From the NCBI RefSeq assembly GCF_001735745.1, contig NZ_CP017260.1, forward strand, positions 2,280,001 to 2,312,000: a stretch of 32,000 nt of DNA. Direction: 5' to 3'. The notes beneath the pieces are model-generated. The model ran no database searches. It worked only from the letters and a program-made list of their open reading frames with translations, and was not told the DNA's origin. Shown in pieces: positions 1 through 14,424 of the stretch. This DNA comes from Formosa sp. Hel1_33_131. GTDB taxonomy: Bacteria; Bacteroidota; Bacteroidia; Flavobacteriales; Flavobacteriaceae. The first letter of the stretch is position 1; the number at the start of each line of letters is the position of its first letter. Position numbers and translations under genes: made by a program.

Positions 1-14
1 CAGAGTTATTCTTG

Positions 15-38
15 CTCCCATTTTGGGAGTCTTTTTTT
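15..38 (+). terminator. Rho-independent terminator-like hairpin for a gene upstream of the window
   Basis: CTCCCA-TTT-TGGGAG stem-loop (15-29) followed by TCTTTTTTT. Confidence 0.45.
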
Positions 39-584
39 GATAGCTACGTACTATTATTCTGTAACTATAAATTAGATGTCGAGGAAATACTATTTCATTG
101 GCATAATGTTTATGCCAACAGTTTTTGAATGAAGTTGAATAATCCGTATCTTTGAGGTGCTTAAACATCAAGTCAATGGTTTTCGATTTCGGTCAATTCT
201 ATTGGCTTTTTTACTTTCTCAAAGGTCGTGGATTACAGAACTTTTTCAAAAAAATAAGGGCCAAACATATCAACAAAGTTTTCAACATAAGTTCTTGATT
301 ATTAGCTGTTTATTACTTGCGTATTATTTGTTTTTTATTTGTTTATTGTTTGTTTCAAGCACACAATAATTTGTAGATTAGGCTAGCAAATATCGATGCT
401 TTTAGAAGGGTTTCATCATTTCAAATAATGAAAATTACTATCCTTAAATTAAAAATATTACTAACTTTACAATTTAAAAATTAGAGCTATTAAAACTTTT
501 TTGCTTCATACAATCTGTGGAATATGTTAGTTCTTACTAAAAAGACTAAAATAATGACTAGTGGAAGGGTTAATTGAAATTTCT

Positions 585-592
585 TATCTTTG
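585..592 (+). promoter_or_regulatory. Bacteroidota-type -7 promoter box (TAnnTTTG)
   Basis: TATCTTTG lies 21 nt upstream of the ATG at 613 and matches the Bacteroidetes sigma-A -7 consensus TAnnTTTG. Confidence 0.4.
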
Positions 593-612
593 AAATATAA
601 ACCAATTTAATA

Positions 613-1395
613 ATGAAAAAACTACTCTTACTCTCCGCCTTTCTAATTTTCGCTTGTAGTAGTGATGATAGTAATAATGAGGAAAATACAACTACTGGAC
701 AAAAAAAGCTAGTATCTTTTGAGATTATTGAGGATGATAACTTGTGTGTTGGCGGAAAAAACTACAGCTGTATTTATGAAAATGATAAAATTATTACTAA
801 ATCATATCAAGGTTATAGGTCTTCTTGCTATTCAAATAATTCAGACAATTGGAATTACAACAATAGATACCAAACTAATTATGAATATTTATCTAATAAA
901 ATTCTTGTAACTAGTCCAGAAGATGAAGGTGAGGTTAATCTTGATGAAAATGGACTAGCTATTGGGGTTCAATTTCTAAATGGAGAATTGATATCAAATG
1001 GAGATATAACCTTTGCTTGGGAAGGTGGGAATGTATTACAGGCAGAAATAGAAAACTATAGTCTTTTATCAATAGACTATTCATCTATTCTGAATAACAC
1101 AAATTTTATTCATCCTTTATTTGTTGATACTGATTTAGCATTGAGTGGTGAGTATATTGCTTTAATAGTTAGTGGTGCTGCAGGAAAAACCTTAACAAAT
1201 TTACCGCTTAGAACAATTAAACGTAATTCAAATGGGGAAATCCTAAGCGAAAGTATGTGGTCATATGTAATGGATGATGAAAATTATCCGATTTATATAA
1301 AAATTGACCTTGCAACATACGAAAACAATGAGTTTGATTATGGTAAAGACTTGCCTAGAAGATTAATAACTTATAAACTCACTTACAACAACTAA
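613..1395 (+). CDS. Lipoprotein of unknown function
   Basis: A 260 aa ORF with N-terminal MKKLLLLSAFLIFAC-SSDD (signal peptide plus lipobox Cys). I recognise no catalytic motifs. Confidence 0.8.
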   Translation: MKKLLLLSAFLIFACSSDDSNNEENTTTGQKKLVSFEIIEDDNLCVGGKNYSCIYENDKIITKSYQGYRSSCYSNNSDNWNYNNRYQTNYEYLSNKILVTSPEDEGEVNLDENGLAIGVQFLNGELISNGDITFAWEGGNVLQAEIENYSLLSIDYSSILNNTNFIHPLFVDTDLALSGEYIALIVSGAAGKTLTNLPLRTIKRNSNGEILSESMWSYVMDDENYPIYIKIDLATYENNEFDYGKDLPRRLITYKLTYNN

Positions 1396-1941
1396 ATGAA
1401 AAAACTACTCTTACTCTCCGCTTTATTAATCTTCGCTTGTTCAAGTGATTAAAGTTCGGATACGAATGATAATAATAATGCTCAAAATGATAGTATAATT
1501 GGGACTTGGAAACTTTATAATATTCAAATATTTAATCAAAATGATGAATTATTGATGGATTTTATAATAAGCGGAACTGATTGTTTTGATATGGGCGACT
1601 GTCAATTAAATTCAGACTATGTTGAATTTACTGACAGTACTTTCACTGCATATACCTTTTGGGAAGAAGAAAGTTCTGATTGTCAAAATGGAGATATTAT
1701 GATAGTTGATGGATGTACAAATGTATATATCAGTACCGCCAGTTATAACTTGAATAATTCTATTATAAACTATTCAGATTATATTGAAGAAAACCTTATA
1801 TGTAATGAGACAACTGAACCTCAAGATGACAGCACGCCATTTAGTATAGAAAACGACAAATTAAAAATATACAATCAAACCCAACAAATAGAATGTTTTG
1901 ATGAGCCTCATTATTATGTTTTTACATATCAAAGACAATAA
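1396..1941 (+). pseudogene. Lipocalin-like lipoprotein paralog interrupted by an in-frame TAA
   Basis: The ATG at 1396 directly abuts the upstream stop codon. It encodes MKKLLLLSALLIFACSSD, then TAA at 1450-1452. The same frame continues SSDTNDNNNAQNDSIIGTWKLYN... into the 1552..1941 ORF. The first 45 nt or so are nearly identical to the start of the 613 gene. Confidence 0.7.
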
Positions 1942-1945
1942 ATAA

Positions 1946-2164
1946 TTAACACTTTTCAACCCTGCTAATCGGCAATAGCAAGTCAGTTGCTTCTACTAAA
2001 TAGCTTCCATTGTTCGTTTTAAGCGTGTATTTAAGCGTTTCTATTCGCTCTATACTGATAATCGTTTTAACGCTGTTTTCGGATAATTTAAAGGCTACAT
2101 AGCGACATTGAATGTCGTCTATTTCAGTGGCTTCTAAAAGAAGCTTAAAAAGGCTGTTTATCAC
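1946..2164 (-). CDS. Hypothetical small protein, possibly a LytTR-like DNA-binding domain fragment
   Basis: A 72 aa ORF. The C-terminal ...IISIERIETLKYTLKTNNGSYLVEATDLLLPISR weakly resembles the end of LytTR domains. No N-terminal receiver or sensor part is present. Confidence 0.3.
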   Translation of the reverse strand: MINSLFKLLLEATEIDDIQCRYVAFKLSENSVKTIISIERIETLKYTLKTNNGSYLVEATDLLLPISRVEKC

Positions 2165-2598
2165 CCCACTAGCCTAATTGAAAAAACTTGATTAATCAAA
2201 CTCTTTTTTATGCTGTGTGTTATGCCTAAGTAAAGTAGACTAAAAGGTTAATCTCTCATACGATTGTTGTTATTTAAATATTGCTCTAATAGTAAAATTT
2301 ACGCAAACTAAATCTAACCTGTAAAACTTATTTTTGAGTACACACTTTTTAGCATTTATGCGGATAATAGTGTACCTCTAATTTTTAATGTTTTCAAATG
2401 TCTGTAATAGATGCTGGTTTTATTATCAAGTAACTCACACACTTGATGTTTAGTAATATTTAAAACAAAAGCTGATATCAGCATAATTATGAAATGTAAA
2501 AACTATTTACTAAATTTAATTGAAAATATTCCACTTTGGTATGAAGACGTACAACGCAGCTTTCCATAAGAACTATATTTTTTTTAGTTATAATTTAC

Positions 2599-2606
2599 TA
2601 AATTTG
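2599..2606 (+). promoter_or_regulatory. Bacteroidota-type -7 promoter box (TAnnTTTG)
   Basis: TAAATTTG lies 33 nt upstream of the ATG at 2639 and sits inside a 22-mer that is repeated 88 bp upstream. Confidence 0.4.
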
Positions 2607-2638
2607 TTTGAAAACTAATTTTACTCTTAAACAAGATT

Positions 2639-3667
2639 ATGGATAGCAAGAAGGTAAGACAACTAGTAAAAGCATTGAATGAAAAATTTGAAAATTGGGA
2701 TTGGGAAAAAGCACTTGCTAACAGTCAAATTGAAGCTACCACAAGAGATTATTTAATACATCCATTTCTTGATTTGCTTAATTATGATAGAATAGATGAT
2801 TACACTCACGAGGTTACAGCAGATTTAGGGAAGAAAAAAGGGAAGAAAGTAGACGTTGCTATTACATTAGGGGGCAAAAATCCAGTTATTTTAATTGAAT
2901 GTAAAAAATCTACAGCTAAATTAAATGACAACCACTATAGACAACTTCGAGAATATTGTACAGATACAAATACTGCGAAAATTGGAATATTAACAAATGG
3001 AATAGTTTATAAGTTTTATACAAGAAACAATACTAGCACACTTCAAACTTCTCCTTTTTTTGAATTTGACTTGAGTGATTATGATAATCAAGATTTAGAA
3101 ACACTTTCTCTTTTTATGCGAAATGTAATTGACATAAATTCAATTTTGGAAGCAGCAGAAGAAACATATTTTTTAGATAATTTCGATGAAGCACTTTATG
3201 ATACTATGGTAAACCCATCAGAAGATCTTATTAGAATTATTTATGCAAATATGGGTGGTAAGAGAAAATCAGATAAGATTTATTCCAAAATAAAAGAATT
3301 AATAAATGGTACATCCTTAATTAGTACTTCAAATAGAATTATTAAATATGAAGCCTCAATGTCTAATTCTGGCATCATTACCACAGATGAAGAAATAAAG
3401 GCATATAATGTCATAAAAACAATTATGGCAATGTCTAGCAAGTTTAAAAATAATGATTTACAAAGAATCAGTTATAGAGACTTAAAGGGTAAGTTTTTAG
3501 TCCTATTTGATGATAATCAAAAAAAGAAAATTTGCTCTCTAATACTTAAAGAAAAATCAAAAGTTGTTGAAATTGGTGAGGATAAATTTCCTCTAGAAGA
3601 CACTAGTATAGCTTCAATAACTAAACTAAAAAAGCAATTACTAGAATCTGCACTTCAACACGTTTAA
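2639..3667 (+). CDS. HsdR_N-type PD-(D/E)xK nuclease-fold protein (type I restriction enzyme R N-terminal domain family) with an uncharacterised C-terminal half
   Basis: A 342 aa ORF. It carries the motif block E..TRDYLIHPFLDLL ... KVDVAITLGGKNPVILIECKK ... QLREY ... GILTNGIVYKFY, typical of the HsdR N-terminal endonuclease-like domain (D...ExK). There is no helicase or methylase partner nearby. Confidence 0.75.
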   Translation: MDSKKVRQLVKALNEKFENWDWEKALANSQIEATTRDYLIHPFLDLLNYDRIDDYTHEVTADLGKKKGKKVDVAITLGGKNPVILIECKKSTAKLNDNHYRQLREYCTDTNTAKIGILTNGIVYKFYTRNNTSTLQTSPFFEFDLSDYDNQDLETLSLFMRNVIDINSILEAAEETYFLDNFDEALYDTMVNPSEDLIRIIYANMGGKRKSDKIYSKIKELINGTSLISTSNRIIKYEASMSNSGIITTDEEIKAYNVIKTIMAMSSKFKNNDLQRISYRDLKGKFLVLFDDNQKKKICSLILKEKSKVVEIGEDKFPLEDTSIASITKLKKQLLESALQHV

Positions 3668-3680
3668 TTTTTTTGATTAT

Positions 3681-4370
3681 ATGAAGAAACAGTTACCAGC
3701 TTTTTTTGATAAATTTATATATGTATTAATAATTTTGAATCTCATCTCTATGGTAATAGAGTCTGAACCAGATTTAACAGTAAATACTAAATCTTATCTT
3801 TTTTATTTTGAAGTTCTTTCAATTTCAATATTTACTTTAGAGTATTTAATTAGAAGTTGGTTCTCTATTAAACAAAAAAAGAACTACAACATTACCTTTT
3901 TCGGAATCATAGATTTATTATCAATTCTACCATTTTTCTTTAGTACTGCATTAGGTTTCGATGGAAGGTTTGTGAGGATCTTTAGATTGTTTAGGGTTTC
4001 GAGAATATTAAAGTTAGGAAAGTTCAGCAAATCATTTGAATTACTAGGAGATGGTATTTACAATGTTAAAAGAGAATTATATATAACCTTTTTTATTGCT
4101 TTCATTATGCTTTTCTTTTCAGCATCTGGAATATATTATCTAGAAAACCCAGAACAGCCTAAAGCCTTTTCGAGTATTACAGAATCTTTTTGGTGGGCAG
4201 TCTCATCTTTAACTGGGGTTGGTTTTGAAGAAATATTCCCACAAACTTTTGGTGGTAAACTGTTTGGGACATTTATTTCTTTAATTGGAATAGGAGTTGT
4301 AGCTGTTCCTACTGGCATAGTAAGTGCTTCGTTTGTTGAGATATTAGAAGAAGAAAAGAATAAAAAATAA
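3681..4370 (+). CDS. Ion transport protein: minimal 6-TM voltage-sensor-type cation channel
   Basis: A 229 aa ORF with six hydrophobic segments. The S4-like helix RFVRIFRLFRVSRILKLGK has basic residues every third position. The pore loop is ESFWWAVSSLTGVGFEEIF, where GVGFEE replaces the K+ signature TVGYGD. It starts 13 nt after the upstream gene. Confidence 0.8.
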   Translation: MKKQLPAFFDKFIYVLIILNLISMVIESEPDLTVNTKSYLFYFEVLSISIFTLEYLIRSWFSIKQKKNYNITFFGIIDLLSILPFFFSTALGFDGRFVRIFRLFRVSRILKLGKFSKSFELLGDGIYNVKRELYITFFIAFIMLFFSASGIYYLENPEQPKAFSSITESFWWAVSSLTGVGFEEIFPQTFGGKLFGTFISLIGIGVVAVPTGIVSASFVEILEEEKNKK

Positions 4371-4418
4371 TTAAATGAAAAACTATTCTGATTTCATAAA
4401 AGAAACACTAATCAAGTT

Positions 4419-5528
4419 TTACAAGTGTGAACTCAAAACTTGGAGAAAAATATTTAGATACAAACCCAAAACCATAGGCATATCCTCTTCTTTCAGTTCT
4501 GCTATTTCTAAACCTCTTAAGTAGGTCAGAGACACATTTATAGATGAATGCCCCATAGCTTTTTGTAGCTTGGTTATAGACCCTGTTCTCTTAAAGATTT
4601 CTATAGCTCCTGAGTGTCTAAATGAGTAGAGTGTTTGGTCTTGTTCAAGCAGTTTAGAAACCCTCTTAAAACGTCCCCAGAGTGTCTTAAAGTAATCTTG
4701 GTTTAATGGTTGTTGTCTTCCAGAAAAGATATTATGATGAGGTTCTCCTTTTATAAGTAGTTCTCTAATATAAGAGGGTACAGGAACAATTCTATTTCTG
4801 CCTGATTTATTTCTATTACCAGACAAATGAATATAGCCCAAGTCATCACTAAAGTCAGACCAAGTAAGTTCTCTTATTTCACGATGAGGTCTTAAAAGAC
4901 ATCCATAGGTTATTAAACAACATAGATATAATTGTTTGTTGTATGCTTTAATATCTTCAAGTATCTTATTGATATTGTCAAATGGTTTGTGCATTTGAGC
5001 ATTTGCTCTTTTTGACTTTATTCCCTGCATTGGATTGGAAGTCATTCCTATTTTTCTTGCTTCATTAATTAGTGAACATAACCTCAGTCTATAAGTGTTA
5101 TAGGAACTTTCTGAATTGTATTTATTTAATATTATTTCTATGTGAAGTGAAACAATAGGTGAGTCTTTCAGTTCTTCAATTAGCTTATTAAATATAAACT
5201 GTAACATCTCCTTATACTTCTTAGTATAGTTTTCTTTGAGTTTGTTGTTTAAGGCTACTGTTAAGTAATCCTTATCTGTCATATTAGGTTTTATGAGTTT
5301 GGATACTTTAAGTTGCTCTAAGGTTAAGCCACTAATTAAAAATTGATATACCTCTGATGCTAATAGATTACCCATTTCCATTCGTTCAGAAACAGGGTAG
5401 GAGTTAGGGTAGATATTTGAATTGATTTTAGAACCATTAAACAATCGATATCGTTTGTTATTTTGGTTAAAAATTACATAAACCCTACTTTTAGAGTCAA
5501 CTTTTACTTTTGGATACATTAAATTCAT
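4419..5528 (-). CDS. Tyrosine-type site-specific recombinase (phage integrase family)
   Basis: A 369 aa ORF with C-terminal catalytic boxes LLRPHREIRELTW (Arg), YSFRHSGAIE (R-H) and AMGHSSINVSLTYLR (His...Tyr). Its 5' end lies 63 nt from a tRNA-Arg fragment. Confidence 0.9.
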   Translation of the reverse strand: MNLMYPKVKVDSKSRVYVIFNQNNKRYRLFNGSKINSNIYPNSYPVSERMEMGNLLASEVYQFLISGLTLEQLKVSKLIKPNMTDKDYLTVALNNKLKENYTKKYKEMLQFIFNKLIEELKDSPIVSLHIEIILNKYNSESSYNTYRLRLCSLINEARKIGMTSNPMQGIKSKRANAQMHKPFDNINKILEDIKAYNKQLYLCCLITYGCLLRPHREIRELTWSDFSDDLGYIHLSGNRNKSGRNRIVPVPSYIRELLIKGEPHHNIFSGRQQPLNQDYFKTLWGRFKRVSKLLEQDQTLYSFRHSGAIEIFKRTGSITKLQKAMGHSSINVSLTYLRGLEIAELKEEDMPMVLGLYLNIFLQVLSSHL

Positions 5529-5547
5529 TTGACAGACATTTGACAGA
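5526..5547. repeat. Tandem 11-bp direct repeat overlapping the integrase start codon
   Basis: CATTTGACAGA occurs twice back to back (5526-5536 and 5537-5547). The first CAT is the complement of the integrase ATG. Confidence 0.6.
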
Positions 5548-5590
5548 TTATATTTTTATAATCTTTTAAAAATCTAAAATTCAATGTTTT

Positions 5591-5651
5591 AGCTGGATAG
5601 AGCACCTCCCTTCTAAGGAGGCGGTCCTAGGTTCGAATCCTAGTGCGATCA
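5591..5651 (+). tRNA. Partial tRNA-Arg(UCU): only the 3' 61 nt (D-loop to discriminator), a probable att site remnant
   Basis: The fragment reads AGCTGGATA-GAGC-A-CCTCC-CTTCTAA-GGAGG-CGGTC-CTAGG-TTCGAAT-CCTAG-TGCGATC-A, with anticodon TCT. The expected 5' acceptor strand GATCGCA and the 5' D-stem GCTC are absent; the upstream sequence is ttcaatgtttt. Confidence 0.8.
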
Positions 5652-5658
5652 CTTAAAA

Positions 5659-5685
5659 CCTGACTAGAAATAGTCAGGTTTTTTT
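5659..5685 (+). terminator. Rho-independent terminator downstream of the tRNA fragment
   Basis: CCTGACTA-GAAA-TAGTCAGG hairpin followed by TTTTTTT. Confidence 0.7.
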
Positions 5686-5769
5686 GTTTCTATAAAATTA
5701 TTTAACTAATTAAAATCATAGGTTTCAGAAAAAAACATATATCAAATTCAACTTAGAGCGGGGCAGAAT

Positions 5770-7827
5770 TTATTTAGGAGCATACCTTTTTATAGCGGAA
5801 CCCAATACCTCTGATCTGTCAAATGACATTGTTTTGGTTTTAAAATTAACATACAACTCCATCTGATCAGAATAATGTGGACTCTCTGGTCTTCGGCTAT
5901 TTCCATAAGAAATAACGGATTCATAATAGGTTTTAGTTGGCGTAAAGCGCACCAACCCAATATAAGATTCACCATGAGTGATCTTTATTTCTCCATCTTT
6001 ATAAGGCTCTCCTCGCATCGCCGTAACAACATCTGGCAAGCCAAAAACAGGGAGCTCTTTTTCTCCTCTCACTAGTTTTTGAAAATCTCCTAAGCGAATG
6101 CGTTCACTATTAAAATGAGTCAACATATAAGCTTTTGTTGTTTTCAAGGCTTCAAATAATACGTCATGCGTAAAAACACGATCTTCAGAAAGTTGATCAA
6201 AAAAGGGTCCAAGTTGATAGTATAGTAATGCATAGGCTCCAGCACCATAAGATTTTGGGTTGGTAACACGATCCCAATTTTTAATACTCGTTAATAGTGC
6301 GCTAACTTCTGGATAGTCCTCCGTTTTCATTTCAAATAATGGATTTAAATCCATATAGTTATAGCTTAGAGGAGTTGGTAATTGATGGTCATATTTGATG
6401 CGTTTGAAACGCTCATAGTCTATGTGTTCTTTTTCTTCAAGCAATTGGAGCAGACGTGTCGATCGATTGTTGTCATAAGTTTCAAAATTCATGGCGTTTG
6501 CAAAATTTTCTGCTTGAGGATTGTCATCTTTTCCTGAAGATTTAAAAGGACTGTGATTTGCGTTGTATACAAACCCTGATTTTGGACTGATAACCTGCGG
6601 CAACTCTTTAATGGGATAATAGGAATCCCAAAGCGTTTTACGGGTATTTCCGGGAACAACGTCTGTCCAATCATACCCTTCATTTCGGATGGGAATTTTC
6701 CCATTAGAAATATAAAAAATAGTATCATTTCTATCAGCATATCCAATATTGTAACCCGGAAGTGCTTTCATTTCTAAGGCTTTATAAAACTCTGTAAAAT
6801 TGGTAGCTTTGTTCATGCGCCACAATTGCTCAACAGCGTTAATATTTGTTGTGCTTGGTGTACGTACTGAGTAAACTCCTGTTTTATTTTTTAGAGTTGA
6901 TCCATAGATACTTCGGTAAAACTTTTTCTTAATTGGAATCTTAAGACCTAGTAGTTTGAGGTAAATTTTGGCTTTAAATTTTTCTAGCTTGTACGGCTTT
7001 CCATCCACTAGATAGACGTCTTTTTTGTGGGGATGCATTTCTAGAGCGTATACATCTGCTTTGTCTGGGTAATTAACCGTATGTGTCCATCCCAAGAATT
7101 CATTGGCTCCCGTAAAAATACAAGGAGACCCAGGGAAGGTGGCTCCAATAATATTGGTACCTTCCTCACTCACTAAATGCGCTTCGTACCAAGATGTTGG
7201 ACCTTCTAAAGGTTGGTGAGTATTGATGGCTAAAAATGTTTCATCTGATTGGGTTCGACTGCGACTGATAGCAATGAGATTAGAGCCTTTGGTGTCCTGT
7301 TCAATTTCATAGGGCCAAGACAGTTCGTTATTGACAATTCCACTGACAAGATTTGCTGCGCCATTTGAAATAAATAACTGAAGTTGTGTATAGCGAAGTA
7401 TTTTTTGAGGAGTGAGAGGAAAGAGTGAAGATTCTAGAATTTCATCGGGATGTTTTTCAGCAAAGGCATTTAGCCCTTTTGTAAAACCCTGAAGTAGTTT
7501 AATAAATTTTGGATCGAGGGTGTTAAATTGTTCGTTTACTATTTTTTCAGACTGAATTAGTTGGGCAAGAAAATCAGCAACGGCACCTTTCAAACCTATA
7601 AATTTACTCAACAACCCATTTCCAGCAAGATAGGCTTGCTGAATTGTTTTAAAATCATCTTCAGCTTGAGCCCAAGCAAACCCATAAGCGACTTCAGCAT
7701 CTGTGGGCGCATATATATGAGGGACACCATATGAATCTCTTACAATTTCAATTGCGTCTGGATCAATTTGGGAGTATATGTTAAGGGTAGTCAGTAAAAA
7801 TAAAAGTATAACAATGGTGTTTTTCAT
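5770..7827 (-). CDS. Penicillin acylase family protein (Ntn-hydrolase, peptidase S45), secreted
   Basis: Family-typical N-terminus IVRDSYGVPHIYAPTDAEVAYGFAWAQAEDDF and a putative autoprocessing nucleophile in KG-SNLIAIS. I moved the start to the internal Met (MKNTIVILLFLLTTLNIYSQ signal peptide) at 7827; the longest ORF starts at 7860. Confidence 0.85.
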   Translation of the reverse strand: MKNTIVILLFLLTTLNIYSQIDPDAIEIVRDSYGVPHIYAPTDAEVAYGFAWAQAEDDFKTIQQAYLAGNGLLSKFIGLKGAVADFLAQLIQSEKIVNEQFNTLDPKFIKLLQGFTKGLNAFAEKHPDEILESSLFPLTPQKILRYTQLQLFISNGAANLVSGIVNNELSWPYEIEQDTKGSNLIAISRSRTQSDETFLAINTHQPLEGPTSWYEAHLVSEEGTNIIGATFPGSPCIFTGANEFLGWTHTVNYPDKADVYALEMHPHKKDVYLVDGKPYKLEKFKAKIYLKLLGLKIPIKKKFYRSIYGSTLKNKTGVYSVRTPSTTNINAVEQLWRMNKATNFTEFYKALEMKALPGYNIGYADRNDTIFYISNGKIPIRNEGYDWTDVVPGNTRKTLWDSYYPIKELPQVISPKSGFVYNANHSPFKSSGKDDNPQAENFANAMNFETYDNNRSTRLLQLLEEKEHIDYERFKRIKYDHQLPTPLSYNYMDLNPLFEMKTEDYPEVSALLTSIKNWDRVTNPKSYGAGAYALLYYQLGPFFDQLSEDRVFTHDVLFEALKTTKAYMLTHFNSERIRLGDFQKLVRGEKELPVFGLPDVVTAMRGEPYKDGEIKITHGESYIGLVRFTPTKTYYESVISYGNSRRPESPHYSDQMELYVNFKTKTMSFDRSEVLGSAIKRYAPK

Positions 7828-8015
7828 AAGAGACTTTGAATAAAATATAAAGATATACAATTAATGATAAGCCCGTTTAATAAAGTAGCCCTAACAGTTT
7901 CCTTATTTCATTATAATTTAATTTTTTTAATTGGTTTTTGTCACATCCATTTAGCTTGGTATTATTTTAAATCAAATATTTTATAATACAATCTAATAAT
8001 TTGTTTATAATTTAT

Positions 8016-8023
8016 TAAATTTG
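8016..8023 (+). promoter_or_regulatory. Bacteroidota-type -7 promoter box (TAnnTTTG)
   Basis: TAAATTTG lies 24 nt upstream of the ATG at 8047. Confidence 0.4.
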
Positions 8024-8046
8024 TTTAAACAAAAATTAAATATATT

Positions 8047-8430
8047 ATGAAAAAAGTACTTTTTACAATTTTATCTTTATTAATTATGTCATGCAGTAGT
8101 GATGACAATGATAACAGTTCTGCACCAACAGTTAATTCTGATTTGGTAGGTACATGGGTAGGATCAGGGGTAGATGATGAGGATCCATTAATGGTTACAA
8201 TCCAAACAATCGTTTTTAATCAAGACGGTACGGGTTCTCTGACTGATGTGGTTGTACTTGGTGGAGAAACGAATGTTTCTGAACTTACATGGTATTCGAA
8301 TGCGACTACAATCTTTGGTACTTTAGAAGGCCAGTTGGATGAAATTGGATATGTTTTGTCTGAACAAAATCAACAGCTTGAACTTACCTTTCCGGAAGGA
8401 GATGCGAATATTTATGTTAGATTAGAGTAA
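8047..8430 (+). CDS. Small lipocalin-like lipoprotein
   Basis: A 127 aa ORF beginning MKKVLFTILSLLIMSC-SSDDNDN (lipobox), followed by the LVGTWVG motif common in lipocalin-like lipoproteins. Confidence 0.8.
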   Translation: MKKVLFTILSLLIMSCSSDDNDNSSAPTVNSDLVGTWVGSGVDDEDPLMVTIQTIVFNQDGTGSLTDVVVLGGETNVSELTWYSNATTIFGTLEGQLDEIGYVLSEQNQQLELTFPEGDANIYVRLE

Positions 8431-8456
8431 ACAAATATACAAAACCAATTAAATCA

Positions 8457-8487
8457 AGCCTTACTAGAAATAGTAAGGCTTTTTTTG
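8457..8487 (+). terminator. Rho-independent terminator
   Basis: AGCCTTACTA-GAAA-TAGTAAGGCT hairpin followed by TTTTTTT. Loop and flank are nearly identical to the terminator at 5659-5685. Confidence 0.7.
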
Positions 8488-8524
8488 TTTCTATAGAAAT
8501 TGCACGGATATGCTTAATTTCCAT

Positions 8525-8532
8525 TAAATTTG
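8525..8532 (+). promoter_or_regulatory. Bacteroidota-type -7 box, probably the ancestral trmL promoter
   Basis: TAAATTTG lies 24 nt upstream of the ATG of the trmL 5' fragment at 8556. Confidence 0.4.
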
Positions 8533-8555
8533 TATCTATAAATAATAAAAAACAA

Positions 8556-8663
8556 ATGCCATTTAACATCGTTCTTGTAGAACCAGAAATTCCTAACAAT
8601 ATAGGTCGACTTGGTCTCAGTATTCGTTATGTATTCGATGAAAGTTTGCGCACGTTTTTTTAA
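8556..8663 (+). pseudogene. Decayed duplicate of the 5' end of trmL (35-codon remnant ORF)
   Basis: The first 44 nt match 10282-10325 at 42/44 positions, and both mismatches are synonymous Ile codons. A 9-nt deletion follows, and similarity decays by 8620. The remnant encodes MPFNIVLVEPEIPNNIGRLGLSIRYVFDESLRTFF with a stop at 8661. Confidence 0.75.
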
Positions 8664-8709
8664 TAAAACGACAAATGCGCACGTTTTTTTTAATTAGCGC
8701 ACGTTTTTT
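8648..8709 (+). promoter_or_regulatory. Three direct copies of GCGCACGTTTTTT upstream of the Fic gene (putative operator or activator sites)
   Basis: Copies lie at 8648-8660, 8677-8689 and 8697-8709, with start-to-start spacing of 29 and 20 bp. The array ends 4 nt before a TATATTTG -7 box. Confidence 0.5.
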
Positions 8710-8712
8710 GCT

Positions 8713-8720
8713 TATATTTG
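8713..8720 (+). promoter_or_regulatory. Bacteroidota-type -7 promoter box for the Fic gene
   Basis: TATATTTG lies 17 nt upstream of the TTG start proposed by the ORF track (8737). Confidence 0.35.
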
Positions 8721-8736
8721 AGAAAAATTATAAATC

Positions 8737-10269
8737 TTGGAAATAGTAATACCATCAATCGAAACATCCATATTTCAAGGGAAAACCACTCCAGAAGAAG
8801 GGAAAATAGTGGGTTATGGTGCGATTGTTGAAAACTTAAAGTTACCTATCCCATTTCCAAATGTGTTATCTCTAATTACTAAAAAAAGTAAAAAACATAC
8901 GACTGAAGATTGGAACGTATTTCCGAGATCTTACCAACCAGAAGAAACATTATACAAACAACTCGTGTTCGCTATTAAATATGAAGGCATTAATCTGTTG
9001 GTATTAAAATCGCTATTTAATCTTATATCTAAAGAAAGTATCCAAACACTATTGCATATAGAACCTATGGGGCAATATAGCCGAAAAATATGGTTTTTAT
9101 TTGAATGGCTGCAACAAGAAGAAATTGATGTACAGGTAGATTTAAAAAAGAGAACCTACATTCCTTTAGTAGATTCAAGTATGCAATATGTCTTAAAAGG
9201 AAAAGAATCTGCAAAACATAAAATTATTAATAACCTTCCAGGTACAAGAGATTTTTGTCCATTAATATTTAAAACTAAAAAACTAGAATTTCATATAAAT
9301 GCAAACATCTCTGGTAAGCAAAACGCATTCCTAAATAATATCCATAAAGATGTATTGCAAAGAGCCTCTTCTTTTTTATTGTTGAAAGACTCTAAAGCCT
9401 CTTTTACAATCGAGGGTGAAAACCCTGGTAATAATAGAACGATGCGTTGGGGGAAAGCCATTGGTCAGGCAGGTCAAAAACCATTAAGCATAGAAGAATT
9501 AATCCGATTGCAGCAGATTGTAATAGAAAACACTAGGTTTGTTGATATGGGTCTGAGAGACAGAGGCGGCTTTGTTGGTGAACATGATCGGACTACAGGA
9601 GAACCAATTCCGAACCATATTTCTGCAAAAGCAAACGACCTTGAGCAATTATTAAAAGGATTAATTACAGCCAATGAAGCATTGCAAGACAAAGCCTATG
9701 ATGCAGTTTTAGCAGCAGCAACCATTGCATTTGGTTTTGTGTTTATACATCCTTTTGTTGATGGGAATGGTCGTTTACATCGTTATATAATTCATCATAT
9801 TTTGGCAAAAAAAGAATTAACACAGCAAGGAGTTATTTTCCCTGTATCATCATCAATACTAGATCATATTGGTAATTACAGAGCTGTCTTAGAATCCTTT
9901 TCACACCCTTTACTAGACCATATTGAATGGAAAGAAACAGGAGTTCACAATGTGGAGGTAACCAATAACACGATTGATTTTTATCGCTATTTTGATGCTA
10001 CAAAACAAGCGGAGTTTTTATATGAGTGTGTAGAGGATACTTTAAAAAGAGTCATTCCAGAAGAAGTAGCTTATTTACAAAAATATGACTCATTTAAAAG
10101 ATATCTGGATAACAATTTTGAAATGCCAGATAAGTTGGTTGCTATACTCGTTCGTTTTTTGGAGCAAAATGGAGGCGTATTATCAAAAAGAGCCTCAAAA
10201 AATGAATTTTCAGTATTAACAGATTTAGAGATAAAAGAGATCGAAGGAAATTATAACATCATATTTTAA
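8737..10269 (+). CDS. Fic family protein (AMPylase-type, class II with an N-terminal inhibitory helix)
   Basis: It carries the canonical Fic motif HPFVDGNGRLHRY (HxFx[D/E]GNGRxxR) and an upstream inhibitory motif SFTIEG ([S/T]xxxE[G/N]). The ORF is 510 aa. The start codon is uncertain (TTG at 8737). Confidence 0.85.
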   Translation: MEIVIPSIETSIFQGKTTPEEGKIVGYGAIVENLKLPIPFPNVLSLITKKSKKHTTEDWNVFPRSYQPEETLYKQLVFAIKYEGINLLVLKSLFNLISKESIQTLLHIEPMGQYSRKIWFLFEWLQQEEIDVQVDLKKRTYIPLVDSSMQYVLKGKESAKHKIINNLPGTRDFCPLIFKTKKLEFHINANISGKQNAFLNNIHKDVLQRASSFLLLKDSKASFTIEGENPGNNRTMRWGKAIGQAGQKPLSIEELIRLQQIVIENTRFVDMGLRDRGGFVGEHDRTTGEPIPNHISAKANDLEQLLKGLITANEALQDKAYDAVLAAATIAFGFVFIHPFVDGNGRLHRYIIHHILAKKELTQQGVIFPVSSSILDHIGNYRAVLESFSHPLLDHIEWKETGVHNVEVTNNTIDFYRYFDATKQAEFLYECVEDTLKRVIPEEVAYLQKYDSFKRYLDNNFEMPDKLVAILVRFLEQNGGVLSKRASKNEFSVLTDLEIKEIEGNYNIIF

Positions 10270-10281
10270 TAACAAAAAAAA

Positions 10282-10749
10282 ATGCCATTTAACATTGTTC
10301 TTGTAGAACCAGAAATCCCTAACAACACAGGTAATATAGGTCGGTTGAGCTTAGCCTCAGGCTCTGTATTGCACTTAGTCAAACCGTTTGGATTTGAATT
10401 GAGTGACACACGTCTCAAAAGAGCGGGGCTGGATTATTGGAAACACATTACGGTCAAGATCTACGAGAGCTTGGATGAGTTTTTAGCCATGAATAAAAAT
10501 AAGGAAATGGTCTTTCTGTCGAGTGCTGCAAAGAAGAGTTATGTTTCTATCGACTATAAGGACGAACTTTTTTTTGTGTTTGGAAAAGAGTCCGTTGGTT
10601 TGCCAAAAGAACTGGTCGCAAACAACACAGAAAAACTCTATAAAATCCCCATTCACAGCCCGCATGTGAGAAGTTTGAACTTAGCCAATGCCGTCAGTAT
10701 TGTTGTATTTGAAGGACTAAGATCAATGGCGGTTTCTGAGAACGGCTAA
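10282..10749 (+). CDS. trmL: tRNA (cytidine(34)/5-carboxymethylaminomethyluridine(34)-2'-O)-methyltransferase TrmL (SpoU/TrmH superfamily)
   Basis: A 155 aa ORF colinear with E. coli TrmL/YibK: MPFNIVLVEPEIPNNTGNIGRL ... RLKRAGLDYW ... FGKESVGLP ... RSLNLANAVSIVVFE. Confidence 0.9.
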   Translation: MPFNIVLVEPEIPNNTGNIGRLSLASGSVLHLVKPFGFELSDTRLKRAGLDYWKHITVKIYESLDEFLAMNKNKEMVFLSSAAKKSYVSIDYKDELFFVFGKESVGLPKELVANNTEKLYKIPIHSPHVRSLNLANAVSIVVFEGLRSMAVSENG

Positions 10750-10791
10750 AAAGCGTTGAAGTACACCCTGTACTAGTTGTTATATCTAAAG

Positions 10792-11166
10792 TTACTCTAT
10801 CACTCCTGCCCATGCATTGTGAGATTCTCCGAGAGTTATATTCAATGTGCCATTAAAAATAGAAGCAGCTTCCCTTTTGATTTCCTTTTGAATGTAAGTT
10901 GCTAGGTGTTCTGTAGTGCTCAACTGATTTTTAAACTGTGGTAGTTCATCAAGATTTTGATAGTTGAGTTCACTTAAAACCTCTTTAGTAATGCGGTGTG
11001 CTTCTCCCATATCAATTACGACATTAAACTCATTGAGTTCATCACTTATAAAAGTGACATCTACAGTAAATGTAGCACCGTGCATGTTCTGTGCAGGTCC
11101 AAAAAAAGGATTTGGCAACGAATGTGCAATCATGATACTCTCTCTAATTTTTACAAAATAGTTCAT
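10792..11166 (-). CDS. 6-pyruvoyl-tetrahydropterin synthase / QueD-fold (COG0720-like) protein with a degenerate active site
   Basis: A 124 aa ORF. It has ...IAHSL...GPAQNMHGATFTVDVTF where QueD/PTPS proteins carry ...H.L...Cx3HGH. The Cys and the last His are both Ala here. Confidence 0.6.
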   Translation of the reverse strand: MNYFVKIRESIMIAHSLPNPFFGPAQNMHGATFTVDVTFISDELNEFNVVIDMGEAHRITKEVLSELNYQNLDELPQFKNQLSTTEHLATYIQKEIKREAASIFNGTLNITLGESHNAWAGVIE

Positions 11167-11184
11167 AGTGTTTTTTGTTTATTT

Positions 11185-12129
11185 TTAATAGTTGATAATG
11201 TTAATAATAGTGTCTTGGAATTGTCCTTGTCTTAATGCATTAAAAAAGTCTGGACTTTTTATAAATGGAATTTCGTTGGTGATTAATTTTTTATAAGTAC
11301 TGCTGTGATTTTGTAGGATTTCAATCGCTTTAGTTTTTCTGGATTTATAAGTTTCCGTATCTCTTTTTTGAATTGGTATTTCAGAAACTTGAACTGATTT
11401 TATATGCAATCTTTTGGTGTGAAATCTTCCCCCTAGATTTAATTGTACGCTGCGATTTCCATACCAGCTAAGCTCCAAAATAGTGCCTTCTTCACAACTG
11501 TTGTCGATGCAAAATTGCAATGCTTTTTCATTGGCAGTTGTGTTGTAACATATAGAGAATTCTTCAGGATAATTGTCCGTCTTAAAACCGAGTTTTTTGG
11601 CGATATCTAATTTACGAGGATTGCTTTCTTTTACATAGACATCCAAGTTGTATTCTTTAGCCAATGTGACGGCCAGCAAACTTCCAATACTTCCAAAACC
11701 ACACACCAAAATTTTACTAATTTCTGTTGGTTTTCCATCCCAAACCGCATTGATCACAGTCTCCATATTTGCAATTTGAGAGGCAACTTTCAGATCCATC
11801 CCTGTGGGGATAGGGGTCAGACTGTCCTCAGAAATAAGGCAATAATCTTGGTGGGGATGCATAAGGTGGTAAAAGCGTTTTTCGATTTCAAGGATCATCG
11901 AATACCCATATTGAATGGGGAAATTGAAATCTCCTTTTTGGTAAGGGACTTTCATAGTTTCTTGAAGTTCTTTAGGAATGTTCCCCGTAGCAACCAAACG
12001 CTCGGTGCCTGTGCTGATGTTAGAACAAACCGCCATACCCAACAGCAAACTTGATTCCGTTGGTATCGCCTCGTCTCTCAAAATAGATTCTTGTGAAGAA
12101 AGATGCCATAAACTTTTAGACTGTACCAT
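11185..12129 (-). CDS. Medium-chain dehydrogenase/reductase (zinc-type alcohol dehydrogenase-like) family protein
   Basis: A 314 aa ORF with a Rossmann GxGxxG (ILVCGFGSIGSLLA) in an MDR-like layout. Its ATG overlaps the upstream stop (TAATG). Confidence 0.7.
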   Translation of the reverse strand: MVQSKSLWHLSSQESILRDEAIPTESSLLLGMAVCSNISTGTERLVATGNIPKELQETMKVPYQKGDFNFPIQYGYSMILEIEKRFYHLMHPHQDYCLISEDSLTPIPTGMDLKVASQIANMETVINAVWDGKPTEISKILVCGFGSIGSLLAVTLAKEYNLDVYVKESNPRKLDIAKKLGFKTDNYPEEFSICYNTTANEKALQFCIDNSCEEGTILELSWYGNRSVQLNLGGRFHTKRLHIKSVQVSEIPIQKRDTETYKSRKTKAIEILQNHSSTYKKLITNEIPFIKSPDFFNALRQGQFQDTIINIINY

Positions 12130-13022
12130 TAGAATTTTGGGTTTAAGTAAGAACGCATCATAATGGCATTTCCAAACGGATAATATTCTGGGTTATTCAA
12201 CTGAATTGCTTCTGATACTTCTTTTATTTCATCGAATTCGATCGCATTAATTCCAGAGCCAAAAAGGAGTGGAGCGATGTGGAATTCCATCATGCTAATC
12301 AGATTATTTTTTAAAAAATGTTTGATGGTTTCCTTTCCGCCTTCCAGCAAAATTGAACGAATTCCTTGGGTTTTTAAGGCCATTAGTATTTCGCTTGGGT
12401 TCAAAACTCCGTTGTTTTTTTCAACAGAAATATAGGTTACCTTCGGATCTTTTAATTTGTCATTCTTGGGTCCGATGCATATAATTTTAGAGTTATTATT
12501 GGTACACAAGGAATCGTAATTGTTTTCCTCTGAAGTAATGACTATTTTCACGGAGTCTTTTCCCTCCACATGCCGAACATTGAGTTTTGGCTTATCATTT
12601 CTCAGCGTATTTCCACCAATCATCACACCATCTACAAGCGCTCTAATGCGATGGGAATGAATTCTGTTCTCCATGTTACCTATCCATTTGGAATGACCAG
12701 AATTGGTAGCGATTTTCCCATCTAAGCTTTGTGCCACATGCAAATAAACAACTGGTAATTTATTTCCTAAAGGGATCCATATAAATGGCAGATACAATTG
12801 CAATGCTTTTAAAAGATTTTGATCGACCTCAGGATTTGATTTTATTGAATAAGTATTCTTATTGTTGACAATTAAAACTGCGTCTTTTTCGACTGTAGAA
12901 GTTATTTCAGAAATAGAAACAACATCATTTTTTATCTTAAGCCCCTGGTTGATCAACCTTAGAGTAGGGAATAATTCTTTTATTTTTAAAATTGCTCGCC
13001 AATGTTCTTTTTTAATATTCAT
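12129..13022 (-). CDS. RibD C-terminal (reductase) domain / dihydrofolate-reductase-like family protein with a novel N-terminal extension
   Basis: The block VYLHVAQSLDGKIATNSGHSKWIGNMENRIHSHRIRALVDGVMIGGNTLRNDKPKLNVR is typical of RibD-type pyrimidine reductase domains. There is no deaminase domain; about 85 aa of unassigned sequence precede it. Confidence 0.7.
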   Translation of the reverse strand: MNIKKEHWRAILKIKELFPTLRLINQGLKIKNDVVSISEITSTVEKDAVLIVNNKNTYSIKSNPEVDQNLLKALQLYLPFIWIPLGNKLPVVYLHVAQSLDGKIATNSGHSKWIGNMENRIHSHRIRALVDGVMIGGNTLRNDKPKLNVRHVEGKDSVKIVITSEENNYDSLCTNNNSKIICIGPKNDKLKDPKVTYISVEKNNGVLNPSEILMALKTQGIRSILLEGGKETIKHFLKNNLISMMEFHIAPLLFGSGINAIEFDEIKEVSEAIQLNNPEYYPFGNAIMMRSYLNPKF

Positions 13023-14419
13023 CTGCGTAGGTATTTTTTTAGTTCGTTTAAATGATTTTTTAAAACAATAATTACTACAAAAAGTAACAATACTATGGAA
13101 TAGATTTGAAGGTATTCATGTTTTTTTATGAGTAAAGTGAAACTTAGAAATAAACTAACAAATCCCAAGGTTCGTAAGGTATTTAAATTTAAAATTGTTT
13201 TAGTAATACCGTTAACAATTTTGTAATAAATAATAAGGTTAATACTATTGGAAATGAGTGCAGTGTATAGAATTCCATTAATTCCATAAGAAGGAATCAA
13301 TGCATATAATAACACGATAATGATTAGAACTTTAAAGAAATAGACTTGGTTTAATAATTTTGTTTTTTTCTGTTGAACTAATACCATTGAAAAATAACGA
13401 TTGAGAATATAGGGCACTAATGAAATGCTAAGCAGAGGCAAAAACGAATAAATATTTTGATAGTGTTGTGGTTGGAGGATCTCACTAATATTTACCCCAA
13501 TAAAAAATAATACACAACTAATTACCGCAGCAAAGTCTAGATAAAATTGGGTGAGTGTTGAAATTTCTAAAGTATTATTTTTGTTTGGTTTTACAAGAAA
13601 AGAATAGAGGAAAGGTCTAATCGCGTTATCTAATATATTAAGAGATAAAACTAAAATAGCTGAGAGACTTAGAAGTACACCAAATTCTGCAACAGTTGTA
13701 AGCGGTTTATATTTTTCAAGTATGAATTTGTCAATATTTCCCTCAATAATCAAAAGGATCAGAAAGGGGACAAAAGCTATAGAAAACTTTAAACTTTTTA
13801 TAAGAGAATCATTTTTGAAATTGAAAAGTTTACATTTTTTTTGGTGTAATAAAATATATAAAAACAAAACAAGTTGCACTGCAATTGTTCCATACAAATA
13901 ACCCAGAATGCCTTCAGAAAAAATAACAATTAAAAAAAATTGGAGAAAAGCTTGACCCAAAACCGTAGTACTAATTATTTTAGAATACAAATTTGCATTC
14001 TTTTGATTTTGGATATAAATTATATATAAATTATTGATCCCGCTCAAAAGTGTTTGAATTAAAAAAAGAATCCCATAAGGGTAAAAATTTATAGCGTTAA
14101 CAAAACTAATTTCAAAAATGAAGTTTCCAGCGATCAAAAAAAACACAATCCAAAGTAAACCAAGAGAAATATTAAAACTAAAGAGCTGTGAAAAAAGATT
14201 TTCCTTTTCTTTTTTTTCACTGTACTCAAAATAAAGCGTACGCATTGCCATATCCGTTTTTAAGAAGGAAAAGGAATTGAAAATTGCGAAGAATGCGATT
14301 AATAAAGTCAGTACTCCATATTCCTCAACAGGGATATAATTGAGGTAAATGGGTAATAGAATAAAACCAAGGCAAGGTTGGAGAAAACTAATCAAGGTAA
14401 ATTTCAAAAAGGAAATCAT
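13019..14419 (-). CDS. Oligosaccharide/polysaccharide flippase (Wzx-like, MOP superfamily)
   Basis: A 466 aa ORF that is hydrophobic throughout, with about 12 or more predicted TM segments. It overlaps its neighbour by 4 nt. Confidence 0.7.
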   Translation of the reverse strand: MISFLKFTLISFLQPCLGFILLPIYLNYIPVEEYGVLTLLIAFFAIFNSFSFLKTDMAMRTLYFEYSEKKEKENLFSQLFSFNISLGLLWIVFFLIAGNFIFEISFVNAINFYPYGILFLIQTLLSGINNLYIIYIQNQKNANLYSKIISTTVLGQAFLQFFLIVIFSEGILGYLYGTIAVQLVLFLYILLHQKKCKLFNFKNDSLIKSLKFSIAFVPFLILLIIEGNIDKFILEKYKPLTTVAEFGVLLSLSAILVLSLNILDNAIRPFLYSFLVKPNKNNTLEISTLTQFYLDFAAVISCVLFFIGVNISEILQPQHYQNIYSFLPLLSISLVPYILNRYFSMVLVQQKKTKLLNQVYFFKVLIIIVLLYALIPSYGINGILYTALISNSINLIIYYKIVNGITKTILNLNTLRTLGFVSLFLSFTLLIKKHEYLQIYSIVLLLFVVIIVLKNHLNELKKYLRR

Positions 14420-14424
14420 AGGCT

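Follow-up and report, generated by a model that had tools for sequence, protein, structure and literature searches.

The flavobacterium Formosa sp. Hel1_33_131 carries, in a stretch of 32,000 nucleotides (nt) of contig NZ_CP017260.1 (positions 2,280,001 to 2,312,000; hereafter the window), two adjacent open reading frames (ORFs) that travel together on mobile elements (Table 1). ORF1 encodes a protein with the PD-(D/E)xK nuclease fold of the HsdR N-terminal domain, and ORF2 a minimal six-helix channel with a voltage sensor. Judging from the sequences, this cassette is most likely a defence module against phages or other mobile DNA. In the reading that we tentatively favour, the two mobile genes make up a defence cassette whose nuclease would cut DNA, with the channel as its membrane partner for voltage or ions. 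An earlier note, drawn up from the letters of the window, had singled out the same pair as a candidate sensor/effector module.

ORF1 is a predicted PD-(D/E)xK endonuclease

ORF1 and ORF2 are co-directional and separated by 13 nt, as the earlier note described them, and a terminator scan found no terminator in between. Pfam searches assigned amino acids (aa) 33–132 of ORF1 to HSDR_N_2 (E 2.3e-11, 44.2 bits with a cut-off of 25) and also to HSDR_N (E 2.2e-9, 37.9 bits with a cut-off of 25.1), which agrees with the HsdR N-terminal signature reported before, whose quoted motifs are present. The nuclease domain spans approximately aa 30–145 and contains the PD-(D/E)xK residues E58, D72, E87 and K89. 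All four are invariant in 85 of 85 homologs from Flavobacteriia; likewise, 69 distant members showing 27–46% identity all have D72, E87 and K89, with a conservation of at least 90% for E58. The active site is thus under purifying selection, and ORF1 is predicted to be a soluble, metal-dependent PD-(D/E)xK endonuclease. The protein is also a full-length member of PHROG 4225 ('endonuclease'; E 3e-53), a family of proteins of some 340–370 aa that comprises 319 clusters at E ≤ 1e-30 among 50%-identity representatives. Within it, the Flavobacteriia clade has an extra N-terminal helix of ca. 25 aa, plus the channel partner.

The C-terminal part of ORF1, of about 200 aa, is also conserved (TT-x-EE, D281). 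AlphaFold2 modelled this region alone as a helical bundle with a small beta sheet and a terminal helix, with a predicted local distance difference test score (pLDDT) of 76, and the full protein with a pLDDT of 67. When the full model was compared with the PDB using Foldseek, nuclease domains alone were matched (DrdV and HsdR; E ≥ 0.02). The label given to the family by the Joint Genome Institute, 'predicted type IV restriction endonuclease', is an annotation only; a modified-base reader domain, by which a type IV enzyme would be judged, was not recognisable by Pfam or PDB searches in the C-terminal 200 aa or so.

We rejected the idea that ORF1 is a fragment of a type I restriction enzyme: it has merely 342 aa and no match to ResIII, DEAD or helicase domains, and we found no helicase gene nearby and no methyltransferase or specificity subunit gene in window positions 1–16000, in agreement with what had been noted before. 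In one locus (L001), the pair is flanked by a complete Type I system, whose HsdR is separate from ORF1, and by Mrr and Fic/RhuM genes.

Within the ORF1 family, longer proteins with fused domains also occur, with TerD domains in two cases and DUF4268 in one. Standalone homologs in metagenome-assembled genomes (MAGs) of Flavobacterium are followed by conflict-like genes, at 9020–11541 in L037 and 9117–10505 in L043. Judging from sequence motifs, the former would encode a MazG-like protein and a P-loop protein of 728 aa whose C-terminal region resembles S24 peptidases, and the latter a caspase-like protein.

ORF2 is a predicted voltage-sensor channel with a non-canonical filter

The product of ORF2 matches Pfam Ion_trans over aa 8–224 (E 2.6e-34), has no cytoplasmic domain and also matches PHROG 7872 (E 2e-41). 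Its closest solved structure is the Kv1.2-2.1 chimera (E 3.6e-28), in whose alignment FWWAVSSLTGVGFEEIFP of ORF2 stands opposite FWWAVVSMTTVGYGDMVP, and the pore sequence SLTGVGFEE (aa 176–184) opposite SMTTVGYGD of Kv1.2. The S4 helix (aa 96–114), RFVRIFRLFRVSRILKLGK, contains R96, R99, R102, R105, R108 and K111, that is, the basic residue at every third position that the earlier note had pointed out, and this motif is kept in 77 of the 80 related loci described below. The filter reads GVGF[E/K] in 75 of these loci, with Glu after GVGF in 62 and Lys in 13; the T-V-G-Y-G signature of K+ selectivity does not occur in ORF2, which has GVGFE instead. ORF2 also falls far short of the NCBIfam equivalog cut-offs for K_channel_Meth (33 bits vs 300) and PRK10537 (26 vs 425). 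We predict that ORF2 assembles as a tetramer into a cation channel that has a voltage sensor and a non-canonical pore.

Like KvAP and MVP, ORF2 has six helices, an S4 with a basic residue every third position, a K+-channel-like pore helix and a similar size; unlike them, its filter is GVGF[E/K]E rather than TVGYGD, and its gene is mobile and nuclease-linked instead of being a solitary housekeeping gene. The earlier description of ORF2 as a complete channel with six transmembrane (TM) segments was therefore right, but not its claim of unusual compactness, since the NCBIfam model of the MVP type has a length of 203 residues. Similarly, the replacement of TVGYGD by GVGFEE is real, although the argument that it drew from this against a K+ channel is weakened by the 13 loci with Lys and by a lineage of TVGYGD channels that is also associated with nucleases (see below).

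The pair is conserved in marine contigs and its nucleases are exchanged

Using ORF2 as a query, we retrieved 80 independent marine metagenome contigs with channels 64–97% identical to it, representing 43 channel clusters at 95% identity. A gene of the ORF1 family is directly adjacent to the channel, and co-directional with it, in 65 of the 80 loci (81%), upstream in 35 and downstream in 30. The spacing ranges from small overlaps to ca. 70 nt, save for 136 nt in two related loci with a shorter ORF call, and the nucleases show 35–98% identity with ORF1. The earlier note had staked its proposal on such co-localisation, and the pair is indeed conserved and tightly spaced. The other 15 loci have no neighbour of the ORF1 family, and most of them end too near the channel to tell. 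In three of these 15 loci, an HNH endonuclease occupies the place of ORF1: in L054 and L055 it has 260 aa and is encoded 14 nt upstream of the channel, and in L067 it has 143 aa and lies on the downstream side (Pfam HNH, E 1.7e-13 and 1.1e-10, respectively).

A neighbour-joining tree of the channels is cleanly split into a nuclease-first and a channel-first clade, whereas in the tree of ORF1 homologs both gene orders are interleaved. This incongruence indicates that nuclease variants were exchanged between channel lineages several times and that the pair was re-formed each time. The pairing is not due to chance; it is real and selected.

We also examined 35 genome loci retrieved with ORF1, mostly from MAGs of Flavobacterium and other Flavobacteriales, several of which came from lakes and rivers. 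An ORF2-type channel lies beside the ORF1 homolog in only one of them, from Polaribacter (L024), and the nuclease family is therefore broader than the pair.

Small HNH proteins with an N-terminal hydrophobic segment, resembling a TM helix or a signal peptide, occur at 9050–9454 in L014, adjoining an ORF1 homolog with an 18-nt gap, and at 5774–6205 in L067, adjoining the channel; from their sequence, they may be membrane-tethered nucleases. Some channels have partners that are not nucleases but contain hydrophobic segments: a 240-aa protein with a TM2 domain (L114, 836–1558), a 266-aa protein with multiple TM segments (L212, 2998–3798) and a protein of 281 aa with a single such segment (L051, 2003–2848). 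The partner slot of the channel is thus not occupied by nucleases exclusively.

A second channel lineage is associated with nucleases

In locus L015, the gene that follows the ORF1 homolog after 36 nt encodes another type of minimal six-helix channel. It has a canonical TTVGYGD filter and shows 31% identity with ORF2 over the pore half (tblastn). Other channels of this TVGYGD family, which is widespread in Bacteroidota (7507 hits), are ca. 22% identical to ORF2 over the full length. We sampled ten contexts of the family: eight look-ups plus L015 and L025. An HsdR_N-type protein is encoded directly upstream of the channel in four of the ten. It belongs to the ORF1 family in L015 and, in L214, L216 and L219, to a distinct HSDR_N_2 family of 249–256 aa, encoded 4–24 nt from the channel, which shows 29% identity with the nuclease domain of ORF1 and retains the ESGTR, D and ExK motifs. 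An integrase gene lies immediately upstream of this second type of pair in L219. In a further context (L221/L222), a SNIPE/PD-Lambda-1 nuclease, composed of a TM segment, DUF4041 and T5orf172 (PADLOC PD-Lambda-1, E 1e-167), is encoded 18 nt downstream of the channel, and in L218 the PADLOC candidate PDC-S69 (E 4e-78) is found 66 nt upstream of the channel, beside a 1557-aa helicase. The association of channels with nucleases is thus seen in two lineages of the former and in no fewer than four types of the latter. The GVGF[E/K]E lineage comes from marine samples, and a TVGYGD channel with a nuclease was found in at least one genome from a freshwater (river) metagenome.

One or two genes upstream of more distant Ion_trans genes, DUF4236 proteins are encoded on two plasmids, of Aristaeella (L227) and Hymenobacter (L228), which are mutually unrelated.

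The pair moves on tRNA-targeting integrase elements

Comparison of the window with its relatives revealed a 96%-identical block of DNA that runs from 57 nt upstream of ORF1 through the end of the channel gene. Similarity resumes in the last 56–73 nt of the integrase gene, and the outer flanks are wholly different among contigs. In L008, L055 and L061, a full tRNA gene and a 5'-truncated copy bracket elements of 5.7–8.2 kb, whose inward-facing integrase adjoins the truncated tRNA; the window has the same right end. Many loci have a homologous integrase, or a 3' relic of one, adjoining the pair. Pairs of the channel-first lineage lie mid-element and away from the integrase (L094, L105 and L107), and thus the conserved unit is channel plus nuclease, not channel plus integrase. 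The pair is therefore mobile on tyrosine-integrase elements that target tRNA genes, and occurs in differing genomic contexts. Core synteny alone, which the earlier note had named as the opposite of its proposal, does not describe nearly identical pairs set in unrelated flanks beside integrases and tRNA attachment (att) sites.

The set of neighbours comprised 135 de-duplicated proteins, including six genes of L001 that were added by hand. In a descriptive tally, HNH and integrase domains were the commonest Pfam families, and among the PADLOC matches were restriction-modification components of Type I and Type IV, besides PbeA, mad2 and a number of PDC candidates. In these descriptive terms, the pair has a patchy distribution and is located in mobile elements or defence islands, in neighbourhoods rich in integrases, restriction-modification genes and defence candidates.

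A sequence of ca. 70 nt, identical to the last 25 or so codons of the integrase (region of the catalytic Tyr plus the stop codon), is repeated in isolated copies after small ORFs downstream of the pair. Copies were seen at 2038–2110, 2296–2368 and approximately 2440–2535 of L009, 2007–2062 and 2308–2353 of L011, 797–869, 1040–1112 and 2232–2277 of L012, and 4469–4541 of the window. These copies represent either the remains of integrases that decayed one after another or a recombination site at the cassette end. A conserved basic protein of 92–96 aa (MPRPKGSVNK... / ...GGRQKGTPNK...) is encoded upstream of the nuclease/channel slot at 3429–3719 in L055 and 4597–4875 in L052, and may be a regulator of the element or an excisionase-like factor.

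Both families occur in phage lysogeny modules

The ORF1 family yielded more than 582 hits in IMG/VR. The viral genes are typically situated 0.3–2.5 kb from the contig end and 8–38 nt downstream of a CI/LexA-type repressor gene; for example, the order in Streptococcus phage IPP25 is repressor, hypothetical, ORF1-family and integrase genes. Phage Ion_trans genes, whose products show 30–36% identity with ORF2, sit in the same lysogeny slot, as in Lactobacillus phage PLE2, with genes for a helix-turn-helix (HTH) protein, a metalloprotease and the ion transporter, and further on the integrase, and in Dulem virus 33, with XRE-HTH, ion transport and, further on, integrase genes. No member of the ORF2 channel subfamily itself was found in viral contigs. 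The rexAB genes of phage lambda are also located in the region between repressor and integrase.

Comparison with known systems

PADLOC v2.0.0 returned no match for ORF2, and for ORF1 only weak matches to nuclease domains (mad2, E 0.002; MTase_II, E 0.007); likewise, a scan of the 69 ORF1-family members retrieved just the nuclease domains of restriction-modification enzymes. With generic nuclease-domain similarity alone, we rejected the assignment of the pair to a known defence system. Full-text searches of the literature did not retrieve any defence system in which a nuclease is described together with an Ion_trans or voltage-gated channel. This agrees with the earlier note, which knew of no such system, as does the lack of a match to the PADLOC v2.0.0 system models.

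RexAB of lambda resembles the pair in having two genes, one for a cytoplasmic DNA-linked protein and one for a membrane ion channel, borne on a mobile element, and homologs of the ORF1 and ORF2 families occupy the corresponding region of temperate phages. There is, however, no homology, and our pair combines a six-helix channel of the Kv superfamily with a PD-(D/E)xK protein whose active site is intact. SNIPE is a nuclease bound to the membrane and cuts the DNA of phages at injection (PMC13190303). As in SNIPE/PD-Lambda-1, the nuclease here would act at or with the inner membrane, and a SNIPE homolog adjoins a related channel in L221/L222; nevertheless, SNIPE unites a membrane anchor and a GIY-YIG domain in one polypeptide, whereas ORF1 has no TM segment, no DUF4041 and another nuclease fold, the membrane part being a separate channel.

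Zorya consists of the ion-driven membrane complex ZorAB and the effectors ZorC/D, and Kiwa of the membrane sensor KwaA and KwaB. Zorya and Kiwa likewise couple a membrane-embedded sensing complex to a cytoplasmic effector that targets DNA (10.1101/2023.12.18.572097 and PMC11785009); they differ from the pair in that the latter has no PADLOC match to Zor or Kwa models and has a tetrameric Kv-type voltage sensor instead of a MotAB-like stator or KwaA. SNIPE, Zorya and Kiwa are precedents for membrane-linked defence that targets DNA. The membrane-plus-nuclease logic of the pair thus resembles known systems, while its parts are new to immunity.

Standalone prophage endonucleases with an HsdR_N domain (PHROG 4225) are annotated as 'type I restriction enzyme HsdR N-terminal domain-containing protein'. 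To these ORF1 belongs over its full length and with the same catalytic motifs, but most members are free of a channel and the family is uncharacterised. Regarding context only, the elements resemble tycheposons, which were defined in Prochlorococcus and are described as having an integrase that faces inward, partial tRNAs and scattered fragments of integrases (10.1101/2020.12.28.424599): they have an inward tyrosine integrase at one end, full and partial tRNAs and cargo of a defence type, in marine streamlined bacteria. The window by itself contains the integrase and the partial tRNA-Arg, and the full tycheposon-like arrangement is found in L008, L055 and L061. Unlike in tycheposons, we saw no replication module, although hallmark replication genes were not the object of a dedicated test, and Flavobacteria are not mentioned in 10.1101/2020.12.28.424599.

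How the pair might work

In the reading that we favour, the cassette would be expressed from its own putative promoter, carried on the tRNA-targeting elements. The ORF1 nuclease, as effector, would cut DNA, and the ORF2 channel would respond to, or amplify, the ion flux and the loss of membrane potential that go with the entry of a phage genome, a response that would couple the state of the membrane to DNA cutting. We assign the role of effector to the nuclease because its active site is invariant, because its family is autonomous elsewhere and because the channel's partners are unrelated catalytic nucleases, the signature of a swappable effector. In turn, the channel is taken as the membrane partner because the voltage sensor is its defining feature and it has no cytoplasmic docking domain. 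As nuclease variants are freely swapped between channel lineages, the coupling would probably proceed via ions or voltage, not through a co-evolved protein interface.

Several observations weigh against this reading. The ORF1 family occurs without a channel in 32 of the 35 genome loci, and none of the 80 viral loci of ORF1 relatives has an adjacent channel; the phage Ion_trans genes of PLE2 and Dulem virus 33 have no nuclease, and so each gene may be autonomous. Four of the ten TVGYGD contexts lack an adjacent nuclease, having small unknown or membrane proteins, or a nuclease ca. 0.8 kb off. Distant Ion_trans homologs on replicons of Klebsiella, Bacteroides, Aristaeella and Hymenobacter have no nuclease partner either, and that of Klebsiella has opp and cls genes around it, a setting that would suit a housekeeping gene. 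Having Glu or Lys after GVGF, the filter does not allow the ion selectivity of ORF2 to be predicted. Finally, the C-terminal half of ORF1, in which the earlier note had recognised no motif, gave no Pfam match in the 69 members, no PDB fold (Foldseek E > 0.2) and no hit in a sequence-profile search of the PDB.

An arrangement similar to that of RexAB, in which the PD-(D/E)xK protein senses foreign DNA, or a complex of phage protein and DNA, and opens the channel, so that depolarisation kills or arrests the cell, appears unlikely to us. It would fit the layout of a cytoplasmic DNA-related protein with a membrane channel, the presence of homologous families in prophage lysogeny modules and the greater conservation of the channel, with a nuclease as diversified as an arms race would make a sensor; moreover, ion-channel effectors exist in CBASS (PMC10402079). 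Nevertheless, a pure sensor would have no need of invariant catalytic residues, and the swapped partners (HNH, GIY-YIG and other PD-(D/E)xK proteins) share DNA cleavage, not a recognition surface. A voltage sensor would be odd in a channel opened by a protein ligand, for which ORF2 offers no cytoplasmic domain for docking. The roles proposed in the earlier note, with a nuclease fold that senses and a channel that kills, are thus not borne out, in that form, by the invariant catalytic residues, the solitary members of the ORF1 family and the exchange of partners among unrelated nucleases.

It is likewise doubtful that the pair represents two autonomous defence genes inherited together, a restriction-like nuclease and a channel that excludes superinfection or aborts infection, with additive or synergistic effects and no direct coupling. 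Defence genes generally cluster, each family is found alone in prophage lysogeny modules and islands, and nuclease variants are mixed between channel lineages, all of which such a view would explain; yet adjacency in 81% of loci, with overlaps or gaps of roughly 0–70 nt, is much tighter than the ordinary clustering of defence islands, survives the inversion of gene order and divergence down to 35% identity, and arose again with the second channel lineage.

We consider it improbable that ORF2 is a physiological channel with ORF1 as an auxiliary subunit of PD-(D/E)xK fold, working in ion homeostasis or electrical signalling and residing on islands by chance. Nearly identical pairs would not be expected in unrelated flanks beside integrases and tRNA att sites, nor would the patchy distribution, with many relatives lacking the pair, the replacement of the partner by HNH proteins, or neighbours such as SNIPE, PDC-S69 and restriction-modification genes; besides, an invariant nuclease active site is of no evident use to an auxiliary subunit. 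Still, minimal Kv-type channels are abundant in Bacteroidota, two of the pairs (L214 and L216) and two single channels (L212 and L223) lie amid metabolic genes with no integrase within 4–5 kb, and distant homologs, such as the kch-like gene of Klebsiella, are housekeeping genes. For the ORF2 subfamily, we rejected a housekeeping K+ channel given its mobility, filter and pairing. Very improbable, lastly, is an addiction module of toxin-antitoxin type that stabilises the element, with the partner restraining a toxic channel or the reverse: although the pair has the integrase as its immediate neighbour on small elements, outlasts decayed integrases (L007, L009–L012) and encodes two potentially toxic proteins, channel-first pairs are not next to the integrase (L094, L105 and L107), replacement by unrelated nucleases ill suits a specific antitoxin, and each protein occurs without the other.

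Returning to a cassette with a DNA-cutting effector and a voltage-sensing partner, it might, although we hold this with some reserve, belong to an unrecognised class of immune modules of Bacteroidota, based on ion channels of the voltage-gated type, in which voltage or ion flux is the signal of infection, or its amplifier, and the DNA-cutting effectors (PD-(D/E)xK, HNH and GIY-YIG/SNIPE) are interchangeable. If so, this would be the first immune function for a Kv-superfamily voltage sensor in bacteria, and the Ion_trans genes of the lysogeny modules of temperate phages would be its single-gene form. A role in defence would bring the Kv-type voltage sensor, among the best understood of protein machines, into bacterial immunity, with the change of potential at phage genome injection as a simple physical signal of infection. 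Many minimal prokaryotic voltage-gated channels have served as structural models while their physiology remained obscure, and such channels would gain a biological role. The module is compact, with two mix-and-match genes in 1.7 kb, and occurs in abundant marine Flavobacteriia; its study would also put PHROG 4225, a large family of prophage-borne endonucleases, into the context of defence. The variation of the filter (GVGF-E/K vs TVGYG), with a possible split between marine and freshwater lineages, would tie ion selectivity both to habitat and to the biology of phages.

Organisation of the locus in the window

The features of the locus are collected in Table 1. The integrase ORF begins 48 nt past the stop codon of ORF2, a distance that the earlier note had given correctly, as it had the truncated tRNA-Arg that ends the segment. 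The tRNA remnant scored 35.4 bits with the Rfam tRNA model (gathering score 29), matching model positions 8–63 of 71, while ARAGORN made zero tRNA calls in the window; the anticodon loop, CTTCTAA, reads TCT and hence Arg. This remnant is taken to mark the distal copy of the attachment site, at the right end of the integrated element. The chromosomal backbone starts to the right of the adjoining terminator, with a penicillin amidase gene at 5770–7860. Regarding the left end of the element, we found no full tRNA-Arg within positions 1–5590, and no second copy of the att sequence in the window.

Table 1. Features of the nuclease-channel locus, in window coordinates.
Feature	Position	Strand	Description
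Conserved-block start	2582..2638	+	blastn block boundary vs 96%-identical relatives; putative -7 box and repeat copy
ORF1	2639..3667	+	342 aa; HsdR_N-type PD-(D/E)xK protein
ORF2	3681..4370	+	229 aa; minimal six-helix voltage-sensor channel
Window-only 111-nt stretch	4358..4468	.	blastn gap between blocks 2582-4357 and 4469-4541
Tyrosine integrase	4419..5528	-	369 aa; Pfam Phage_integrase E 5e-14; inward-facing, convergent with the pair
5'-truncated tRNA-Arg(TCT)	5590..5651	+	Rfam tRNA; adjoins integrase 5' end
Terminator of the original tRNA gene	5655..5692	+	terminator scan; hairpin (5655-5682) and T-tract

The promoter consensus of Bacteroidetes is TAnnTTTG, and a putative -7 box of this type, TAAATTTG, is found at 2599–2606, within the conserved block; a sigma-70 promoter scan was uninformative, with 20 sites vs 19 expected. 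A direct repeat of 22 nt, ATTTACTAAATTT(A/G)(A/T)TTGAAAA, is present upstream of ORF1 at 2505–2526 and 2593–2614. Its downstream copy is inside the conserved block, together with TAAATTTG, and its upstream copy outside.

Where the channel and integrase genes meet with their 3' ends, the window has a 111-nt stretch that the 96%-identical relatives lack. It stands in place of an overlap between both 3' ends, alters the last residues of the channel and lengthens the integrase by 16 aa.

Farther to the left, a segment coding for a lipoprotein signal peptide is duplicated at 612–704 and 1395–1487 (74% identity over 93 nt). The second copy reaches a stop after some 18 codons, just ahead of an ORF at 1552–1941, which suggests a disrupted paralogous lipoprotein gene. 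On the chromosomal side, 3 kb beyond the right end of the element, a 510-aa protein with a Fic domain (Pfam Fic, E 5e-12) is encoded at 8737–10269; Fic/RhuM genes are likewise found near the pair in L001 and near the TVGYGD channel in L223.

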